A DNA stretch of 64,000 bases, taken from positions 148,862,001 to 148,926,000 of the forward strand of contig OX597817.1 of the NCBI GenBank assembly GCA_951406725.2, in the 5' to 3' direction. This document shows positions 4,484 through 35,330 of this stretch, piece after piece. Each line of letters opens with the position of its first letter. Positions within the stretch are counted from its first letter, which is position 1. Origin of the DNA: Octopus vulgaris. Its lineage: Eukaryota. A program made the translations under genes and the position numbers. The notes beneath the pieces were generated by a model. The model was not told the DNA's origin and ran no database searches. It worked only from the letters and a program-made list of their open reading frames with translations.

Positions 4484-4900
4484 GGCAGCGAACTAGCAGA
4501 AACGTTAGCACGCCAGGCGAAACGCCTCACGGTATTTCGTCTGCCGCTACGTTCTGAGTTCAAATTCCGCCAAGGTCGACTTTGCCTTTCAGCCTTTCGG
4601 GGTCGATCAAATAAGTACCAGTTACGCACTTGGGTCGATATAATCAACTTAATCCCTTTGTCTGTCCTTGTTTGTCCTCTCTGTGTTTTGCCCCTTGTGA
4701 GTAGTAAAGAAATTGGTATTTCGTCTGTCGTTATGTTCTGAGTTCAAATTCCGCCGTGGTCGACTTTGCCTTTCATCCTTTCGAGGTCGATAAATTAAGG
4801 ACCAGTTCCGCACTGGAGTCGATATACTCGACTTGATCCGTCTGTCTGTCCTTGTTTGTACTCTCTGTGTTTACCCCCTTGTGGGTAGTAAAGAAATAGG
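4484..4900 (+). mobile_element. SINE family B with internal tandem duplication (about 1.7 units)
   Basis: Body GGTATTTCGTCTG...GTAGTAAAGAAA occurs twice (about 4531-4712 and 4715-4897). Confidence 0.85.
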
Positions 4901-5499
4901 TATGTTATTGTGAAGACTGGCATGTAAATGTTTGTGAAACGTGTAGTCCTGGCACACTTCCTACGACGATCAAGAATAGCATAGTATGCTTCATTATGAG
5001 TTCTCTGTCCTCAGATTTGCCGTATTTCTCATCTTAGAAAGGTTTACTTGTCAAACCAGTCGTAGGTGTAATGATGTACACTTCTATTGAACCATAGGAT
5101 AAATACATAAAGTTACTTAAGTTGTGAATGAATTCTGGAAAAGTTTATATATTTTCTGGCATTGTGGAGACAGGATATCGACCGCACAATTTAACTTGAC
5201 AGAGGAATTAATTGAATGCATTTTCACCCAACAAACCATGATTAAGATGCTATATATCAACATCATTACTGAAACAGAGATAACAAATAACAATTCTACA
5301 CAAGTTGTTGCCTACAGAACGTAGCTCTTTCAACGGATTACGTCGCCAGCTGAACAGAACACACTGCACGCACTAAAGGTTCAGCAGGAGAATATGGTCA
5401 TTTATAGATAATGGGCAAATTTCCTTTCTATATCCTTGTTACCATGAAAAATCAATATTTTTGTCGCTTCTGGAAGCATTAATGAGACTCTTCTGCAAT

Positions 5500-13909: not shown

Positions 13910-14429
13910 TGTTTTACAGCTTATAGCCAAAAATAAATGTGAGTACTCGGAGAATATTTATACTAAATTCCATTTTTACGACTCTAATTTATACCAAAGT
14001 GAACACCCAACGTATTGTTTATTCGATATTGGAAAGTGGCTCCGTTTCTTGTGTAGGGTTCTATCGTTTCCCGTAATCAGTTTCTAAATATTCAGTCCAA
14101 ACGATGATGTTTTGCCCCTTTTTGCTTTATTTTATTTTTCCGTACTTTGTTCTCTTTTCTACTCACAACCTCCTGTAATATATCTCGTTTCTGAAAGTTG
14201 TCATTCATTGCTACAGGTGTAATTTTTCAAAAATGTATGAATCAGTACTTTGCAGTGATGACAATTTAGCAAATACATAGCAGTTGCATGTGCAAGCCAT
14301 GGATATATCGAGAAAAGAACTGACAAGAATATTTCAGGGATATGATTTGAACAACCCTGCCGGGACCGACTTAATATTTCTTAACACATTTGTGCAGAAC
14401 ATCATTCCTGAAAACCACCACACATACAC

Positions 14430-34142: not shown

Positions 34143-34172
34143 GAGTATCATATGAGAAACAAAACAAACTAA

Positions 34173-34338
34173 TAAACCTAATCTCGGAAAGCACTTATCT
34201 GTAGTTTGAAATGTATCCAACACCCAATTAATATACATGGTATCGGCTTCTACTAAACCTAATCTCGGAAAGCACTTATCTGTAGTTTGAAATGTATCCA
34301 ACACCCAATTAATATACATGGTATCGGCTTCTACTAAA
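34173..34338 (+). repeat. Perfect 81-bp tandem duplication
   Basis: TAAACCTAATCTCGGAAAGC...CTTCTAC starts at 34173 and at 34254. Confidence 0.95.
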
Positions 34339-34406
34339 TATATTACAGGACATTATTTACATTATTTACATTAGATGGATATTTGTCCTAATCTTGTTTG
34401 TGGTAA

Positions 34407-34450
34407 ACAAAACGTTTCGGCTGATATACCCTCCAGCCTTCTTCAGGTGT
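34407..34450 (-). ncRNA. Minimal hammerhead ribozyme motif (stem III reduced to AACGTT palindrome)
   Basis: Minus strand ACAC-CTGAAGA-A-GGCTG-gagggtatat-CAGCC-GAAAC-GTT-TTGT; one mismatch in stem I. Confidence 0.7.
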
Positions 34451-34537
34451 CTTGGGAAAATTTTGAACCTGGGTTCTCATTCCTATGCTATTTTTCTACG
34501 TTGTTATTATTATCATTACTACTACTACTACTAATAC

Positions 34538-34586
<49 letters not shown>

Positions 34587-34589
34587 TTT

Positions 34590-34866
34590 ATTTTTTCGTT
34601 TTGGGATTTGGTTTCAAGATACATTATATGAGTTCGTGTCTTGAAGCATATGCTATTGTGTCTGGGGAGAGTCATTTTCTTTTTGTGCCTTATAATGTGA
34701 CACACTCACTGGTAAAATTTCCATTTATTTCATATTATTATTTTCCTAAAATTTTCGTTGCCTCTTGCAACCTTTTCAATAGTCTTGAAATAAGTGGAAA
34801 TTTTACCGGTGAGTGTGTTACATTATAAGGCACAAAAAGAAAATGACTCTCCCCAGACACAACAGA
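34590..34866 (-). mobile_element. Nested hairpin element with 77-bp inverted arms and a U3-A8 hammerhead-like motif in the spacer
   Basis: Arms 34656-34732 and 34786-34862; minus-strand spacer CTA-TTGAAAA-G-GTTGC-aagag-GCAAC-GAAAA-TTT-TAG (34746-34782); (ATT)n on both sides. Confidence 0.65.
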
Positions 34867-35330
34867 ATTATTATTATTGTTATTATTATTATTTTTCGGG
34901 TCACTGCTTGGAATCGAACTCGGAATCTTGGGGCTTGTAGTCAGCGCTTTTAACCACTACGCCATATATCCGTCGAATGTAAATAAAGTAAATAATCTAC
35001 ATAATTCCTCATCTCTTAAATATAGAACTGTATATTACAGGAATTGGAAGTTTCGAAAATTGACTTACAAAATTATTTTCTACATGAGGAAATTTTAACC
35101 AACTTGTGATGGACAAATCCTTTCTATAGTAATTATTACAAAATATAATTCATATAAATTTGTTTATGAATACGATAATTATTGTACAATATTATATTAA
35201 ACAAACCTGTTTCATTATTCTCTGAAGTATCTACATGAAAATATCACTTGTATGTCAGATATATAACCAGATATATACATACGCACACACATATATAGAA
35301 GGAAAGATAGAGATAGAGAAAGAGAGACGT

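Follow-up and report, generated by a model that had tools for sequence, protein, structure and literature searches.

The composite repeat at positions 34339 to 35042 of the window (the whole 64-kb stretch of Octopus vulgaris DNA analysed here) is very probably a 5'-truncated, two-armed insertion: a decayed solo pseudo-LTR belonging to a family of Penelope/Poseidon type (family A in what follows), whose tRNA-like head is native to it and which later received an insert of a second family (family B). A sequence-only reading of the same DNA had connected it to Penelope-like elements (PLEs), and this connection was borne out, the succession of head, (AAT)n run, hammerhead and tail being the native pseudo-LTR of an element with a reverse transcriptase (RT) and a putative GIY-YIG endonuclease. 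What is unusual is the tRNA-Arg-like module, with A and B boxes, inside the pseudo-LTR of an autonomous element; it is not a new hybrid element.

Architecture of the locus

The insertion is flanked by identical 12-mers on the forward strand (34339..34350 and 35031..35042), which confirms the perfect 12-bp direct repeat first noticed around 34351-35030. Elsewhere in the window this 12-mer has no plus-strand occurrence and a single minus-strand copy, at 14171; the edges of the target site duplication (TSD) are blurred by 1–3 nt of microhomology with the tail. Read on the minus strand, the first component is the tRNA-like head of the family A pseudo-LTR (34896..34967, positions +5 onward), with an A box at 34964-34954 and a B box at 34919-34910, both present where they had been placed before. 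Then come an (AAT)n run in an upstream (34869..34895) and a downstream portion (34501..34594), the predicted start codon of the family ORF (34478..34480), a minimal type I hammerhead (34406..34451, predicted cut after 34411) of the architecture described in PMC4209133, and the tail with its proximal, or short, end (34351..34405), which the family majority alignment and its frame place within the 5' coding region of the ORF. The locus carries only the first ~55 codons of that ORF. On the plus strand, an inverted arm with the distal, or long, end (34966..35030) joins the head with 2–4 nt of microhomology. This is the inverted longer copy of the tail already recognised in the sequence-only reading: it pairs with 34352-34385 over 34 nt and outruns the direct arm by 33–34 nt. 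The excess (34997..35030, plus strand) corresponds to the Penelope 'tail' extension of 33–34 nt found on one arm only, and an inverted longer tail is a standard signature of Penelope insertion (PMC8557442, PMC11167929).

The order of head, (AAT)n, hammerhead and tail proposed earlier holds for the parts it named, but a 274-bp nested element with 83-bp inverted arms also separates head from hammerhead, interrupting the AAT run at ~34595-34868. This insert is a 3' fragment of family B, a second repeat family with its own inverted arm, tail and hammerhead. Its direct arm, with a tail of ~50 nt, occupies 34595..34788 on the minus strand and its inverted arm, of 83 nt and without tail, 34786..34868 on the plus strand; a minimal hammerhead at 34746..34782 (minus strand) matches our descriptor as a U3-A8 core variant with a 3-bp stem I, a variant already described (PMC4209133). 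The family B repeat lies downstream of an RT plus GIY-YIG ORF in 20 of 25 loci, and because this ORF carries a CX4CxxC finger, of the type assigned to Neptune and Nematis (PMC8557442), we regard family B as a Neptune/Nematis-type Penelope. In a similarity-ranked sample of 24 copies, 16 start within a 10-nt zone that has a mini-palindrome just before the hammerhead and no tRNA head. These starts lie ~600–700 nt after the ORF stop (window 34595-34868; L121-L145, L246-L270), and one of these loci, L247, holds a 636-codon open stretch. The family A copy at the locus has acquired T4 runs as well as the nested insert, and because of these gains it is unlikely to serve as a template.

Two other repeats of the window may be recorded here. 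An 81-bp tandem duplication (98% match) at 34169-34338 ends directly at the left TSD, and at 4531-4903 another dispersed repeat, presumably SINE-like from its appearance, is present as two tandem 184-bp copies.

Linkage of head and hammerhead in the genome

The genome searched comprises 2.80 Gb, in which a 29-nt stretch of the hammerhead had 2,811 exact matches and a 24-nt stretch of the head 2,492, with none for the reversed controls. Together with a divergence of ~7% within family A, these exact matches suggest that such fragments number roughly 10,000 or more. The first 92 exact hammerhead matches on one contig gave 90 loci, or 83 insertions without 7 duplicates and second arms, a sample that leans young because its loci were selected for an exact core. 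The association of head and hammerhead, first seen at this one locus, extends to the family: the head lies upstream on the same strand in 56 of the 83 insertions, and on either strand in 68. From the head side (20 loci, corresponding to 21 of the first 27 matches; the remaining 6 had already been sampled with the hammerhead) hammerhead and tail follow within 750 nt in 13/20, and the AAT run is present in all 20. Among these 20 loci no SINE combining this head with another body was found, and in the 7 loci without a tail within 750 nt no common replacement body could be discerned by eye over 130 nt. Parts of the stretch were matched in six organisms, with no RNA record listed among the matches, and contigs of two of them cover the ORF end, head and hammerhead, none covering the whole.

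Later insertions and repeat expansion concentrate in the (AAT)n run (L003, L013, L014, L030, L066, L073, L302, L310, L312) and set head and hammerhead apart in many copies. Other loci (L107, L108, L109/L110; L148, L164, L169, L174, L190) form groups with more than 1 kb of flank in common at 95–99% identity, so that some copies have spread within larger duplications or other elements.

The pseudo-LTR of an ORF-bearing element

In one of the head loci an endonuclease-like frame was present directly upstream, and this frame served as the next search query. Of the 30 endonuclease-seeded loci, 29 have the head downstream of the endonuclease stop, with a 29-nt spacer in between (28/29 excluding the seed locus). 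RT frames lie upstream of the endonuclease frame, and a genomic piece matched the RT profile PF00078 at 38.6 bits (cut-off 29.6). From the other end, the tail abuts the ORF start in 23/30 loci seeded by the ORF 5' end; seven of the 30 show the succession head-hammerhead-tail-ORF, and three a partial tandem of endonuclease, head, hammerhead, tail and ORF. Partial tandems of pseudo-LTRs have been described for PLEs (PMC8557442, PMC3846280). The unit runs from the ORF and its stop across the 29-nt spacer into the tRNA-like head and (AAT)n, then through start codon, hammerhead and tail back into the ORF.

The family majority sequence, a reconstruction from 5–39 decayed pieces per segment, has a single ORF of 838 aa whose start precedes the hammerhead core by 34 nt, and hammerhead and tail lie inside its 5' end in the majority frame. 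Among the sampled genomic loci there was no full-length intact copy with both pseudo-LTRs. The 838-aa ORF shows 37% identity to an 836-aa Anolis carolinensis protein, which we infer to be Poseidon, and 57% to a relative (P0008) with a homologous hammerhead-encoded N-terminus. We take its C-terminal endonuclease to be GIY-YIG by the motifs we recognise in it; a Pfam search of the endonuclease pieces gave no match, and the ORF aligns through its C-terminus with PLE-like relatives, 3/120 of which carry PF01541. Family A has no CX2-5CxxC finger before the endonuclease, and family B has one. Family A is probably a Penelope/Poseidon-like element with RT and a putative GIY-YIG endonuclease. The tail does not come from the 3' end of a LINE, as its 3' ends fall within the 5' coding region of the Penelope ORF; the AAT run is internal in family A, and its copies carry no LINE-derived or simple-repeat 3' tail. 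A 9-nt unit of the tail, present in 1–3 copies, varies in number without disturbing the frame and falls at the short 3' end. Some loci have the tail and ~190–290 nt of the ORF start joined, at differing junctions, to a truncated pseudo-LTR (L216, L217, L219, L220, L221, L224, L226, L232, L237, L238, L242, L243), which template jumping or a third zone of RT entry could explain.

This position of the head, within an ORF-bearing element, speaks against the proposal of the sequence-only reading, namely a separate Pol III SINE/retrozyme hybrid that had borrowed a Penelope hammerhead and tail and was mobilised in trans. That proposal was not upheld, and we consider it highly improbable. It would account for the 70/83 sampled insertions that have no ORF sequence (ORF 3' sequence is carried by 13/83, and none of the 83 continues past the tail), for 5' ends that pile up at a head with intact A and B boxes, and for a position-7 A allele seen in 16/50 scored short copies against 3/24 scored ORF-linked ones. 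Variant alleles occur on ORF-linked copies too, many sites being unscored, and the allele comparison, with most sites unscored, demonstrated no subfamily confined to short copies. Solo copies, moreover, are without the downstream ORF part that the Anolis enzyme requires (PMC11167929). A non-autonomous master spreading through a common internal-deletion junction was rejected as well, the single such junction tested having 2 copies genome-wide, 1 Mb apart.

The hammerhead

The hammerhead noted earlier on the minus strand is indeed there: its core starts at 34446 and has a bulged A, stem II spans 5–6 bp, and stem III is a palindrome without a loop. A minimal-hammerhead descriptor, based on PMC4209133 and composed after the motifs had been seen, matched twice in the 64-kb window, both times within this locus, compared with 0.05 matches per shuffled window. 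Family copies match it with a 5-bp stem I. At the locus itself stem I is broken at its first pair, at the cleavage site, position 1.1 (34410) being T; the stem I hexamer has the consensus form in 64/90 sampled copies and the locus form in just one, and the locus copy is predicted not to cleave. An Rfam scan gave no hammerhead or tRNA match, only miRNA matches driven by repeats, and in single-strand folding the z-score was not significant for either the head or the family A hammerhead.

Spread as a non-LTR retrozyme, by self-cleaved circular RNA, is hardly credible for these copies. A preprint derives retrozymes from pseudo-LTRs (10.64898/2026.07.22.740005), and at L034, a single locus among the 30 seeded by the hammerhead, six tandem hammerhead units of 188–197 nt come after a head. 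The locus studied here, however, is not tandem, and almost every sampled locus is likewise single or inverted; their ends are neither permuted nor at the cut site, and minimal hammerheads cleave poorly (PMC4209133). The array at L034 (G000:C30:17290189-17293309), whose hammerhead-plus-tail units are slightly diverged, is retrozyme-like or SM-alpha-like in its own right, and its units could cleave as dimers.

Insertion pattern and a model of integration

An inverted arm is present in 54/88 loci. These 54 two-armed insertions combine one long and one short 3' end in 51 cases and two short ends in 3, never two long ones (p about 1e-12 against independence), and copies end at two fixed tail sites ~34 nt apart, each arm of an insertion having one. 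TSDs, too, are a family-wide feature: repeats of 10–19 nt with at most one mismatch flank 37/54 two-armed insertions (two of the 37 in microsatellite), compared with 9/162 mismatched flank pairs. The two arms agree at hammerhead position 7 in 36/38 insertions, with no discordance between T and another base, and non-majority bases common to both arms amount to 0.0066 per site against 0.0025 in permutations. For PLEs in general, 5' truncation, inverted copies, one-sided tails of 30–40 bp, TSDs and 5' palindromes are on record (PMC8557442, PMC3846280). In the Poseidon element of Anolis the tail is delimited by two internal RT start sites, the hammerhead overlaps the ORF start with its cleavage being dispensable, and the enzyme requires the first 172 nt of the ORF (PMC11167929).

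If integration proceeds as in Anolis Poseidon, the RNA made by tandem masters would be bound in the 5' part of the ORF, the endonuclease would make a cut staggered by ~12 nt, and reverse transcription would be primed by both DNA ends, at the two internal sites; copying would proceed back to the RNA 5' end at the head, where the arms would be joined head to head through microhomology. The template would be uncleaved RNA, because copies span the predicted cut site, and solo copies like the one in the window would give rise to no further copies, as they lack the part of the ORF that lies past the tail. In the window neither arm, in its present form, could template the other, since the long arm has 65 nt and the head is on the short-ended arm. 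Twin priming and fold-back with later deletion both fit these arms, and the arm data do not tell the two apart.

The tRNA-like head and the start of the element RNA

The family head is identical to a host tRNA-Arg(TCG) gene at 44/72 positions without gaps, this gene having the top score and tRNA-Arg(TCT) the second in a comparison set of 25 distinct sequences from 30 loci that represent part of the isotypes. ARAGORN at default settings found no tRNA in the window or in 30 loci of the repeat, and at relaxed thresholds an unnamed tRNA on the majority head only. The probable source of the head is a captured tRNA-Arg-derived sequence bearing an AAT tail.

The 5' ends of the copies fall mostly at the head. 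Of 93 arms with the 3' part of the head, 29 end inside it, 51 at -17..+8, 5 further upstream, and 8 run into the ORF; in other words, 51 of the 64 arms that reach -17..+8 stop there. The ends cluster at -7..+5 of the tRNA-like +1, ~20-fold over the upstream rate. This pile-up fits an RNA 5' end where Pol III would start, and it is likely that the head marks the 5' end of the element RNA, whose start it may also drive. A short palindrome, though, overlaps the same +1 site and explains the copy ends equally well.

Two accounts of the head have to be weighed against these data. The first, for which we see an even chance, makes it a passenger, the remnant of an old tRNA or SINE insertion in the 3' UTR, with the palindrome or a Pol II start clustering the 5' ends. 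Palindromes at the 5' ends of pseudo-LTRs, and self-priming, are known (PMC3846280), the promoter of D. virilis Penelope is internal, TATA-less and LINE-like (PMC2377424), and the 5' ends of family B pile up without any tRNA. Fold-back joints at the palindrome centre were also seen in 259 and 175 RNA reads. Yet the palindrome coincides with the tRNA-like +1, as expected if RNA 5' ends fold back there, and the A and B boxes are intact, at tRNA spacing, in the family majority sequence.

The second account, which is possible but which we hold more tentatively, is that the head works as a Pol III promoter, of type 2 and active in the tandem masters, whose short, sub-genomic and SINE-like RNAs would give rise to the many solo copies. 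Judging from the boxes and the clustered 5' ends, such use by Pol III is plausible. T4 runs are absent from the sense strand of the 2,643-nt unit, with P = 0.028 in a synonymous codon shuffle, 0.07 in a dinucleotide model and 0.006 in a base shuffle. This absence is weak as an argument because a Neptune control ORF is also without T4 in 1,257 nt (1.6 expected), G4 runs are absent too, and T4 was among several types of run tested; given the control, it was not accepted as proving that Pol III reads through. In a related organism, RNA reads (9,754 and 7,438, from libraries of unknown strandedness and of a kind that can lose short Pol III RNAs) showed no defined starts or ends, covered both strands equally and mirrored the DNA copy depth.

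A bolder version of the Pol III account, which we consider unlikely, is that the element swapped a Pol II promoter for a tRNA-Arg-derived Pol III promoter. Pol III would then transcribe the entire terminator-free 2.6-kb unit into an uncapped RNA serving as mRNA and template, and the same promoter would flood the genome with SINE-like solo pseudo-LTRs. Uncapped RNA acts as both mRNA and template in R2, where it is obtained via Pol I and a ribozyme.

Relation to known elements

The octopus SINEs OK, OR1 and OR2 likewise have a tRNA-derived head, which in OR1 and OR2 we take to be of Arg tRNA origin. OR1 and OR2 are cited as CORE-SINEs (PMC4824008, PMC4758252, PMC3531059). It is possible that the family A pseudo-LTR was catalogued before, as one of these three or under another name. 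In the literature compared, no tRNA-derived module is reported in a Penelope pseudo-LTR, and ribozymes are not mentioned in the PMC13282606 text consulted.

Family A shares with described Penelope/Poseidon elements (Poseidon, PMC11167929; Adineta Pen2a, PMC3846280) an ORF of ~840 aa with RT and C-terminal endonuclease, a pseudo-LTR, a hammerhead over the ORF start, two internal ends 30–40 nt apart, the inverted 5' arm, the TSD and the 5' palindrome. It differs from them in carrying, between stop and start codons, an (AAT)n run preceded by a tRNA-like module that contains both boxes, and the Penelope promoters described so far in PMC2377424 and PMC3846280 are Pol II-like. The combination of Pol III and hammerhead is not unprecedented, as the SINE-like elements SM-alpha and Sj-alpha of Schistosoma (PMC6765202) are short dispersed repeats in which a Pol III-type promoter is followed by a hammerhead. 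Those elements, however, are non-coding tandem repeats released by cleavage, whereas in family A the module belongs to an ORF-bearing element with a minimal hammerhead and with copies that span the cut site. Pieces of tRNA or 5S RNA are also known in the terminal repeats of non-autonomous LTR elements, the TRIMp3 elements Helenus, Ajax and Cassandra, whose small-RNA-derived Pol III promoter was possibly acquired by SINE insertion (PMC10886601). These have PBS and PPT and are expected to have autonomous partners relying on Pol II, while here the module is carried by an ORF-containing Penelope element. Non-LTR retrozymes, lastly, have type I hammerheads related to those of pseudo-LTRs (PMC7229834; 10.64898/2026.07.22.740005) and, as at L034, are tandem, unlike the locus, which is a single inverted-arm insertion without tandem units.

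Implications

The end of a Penelope element can look like a SINE, and fragments of this family could be mislabelled in repeat annotations. The strict pairing of long and short ends, together with the alleles common to both arms, places a genome-wide constraint on the unsolved mechanism of Penelope integration. If the head were indeed a working Pol III promoter, family A would be a protein-coding retrotransposon under a tRNA-type promoter, and it would suggest a route to elements that combine Pol III transcription with a hammerhead, such as those of Schistosoma.
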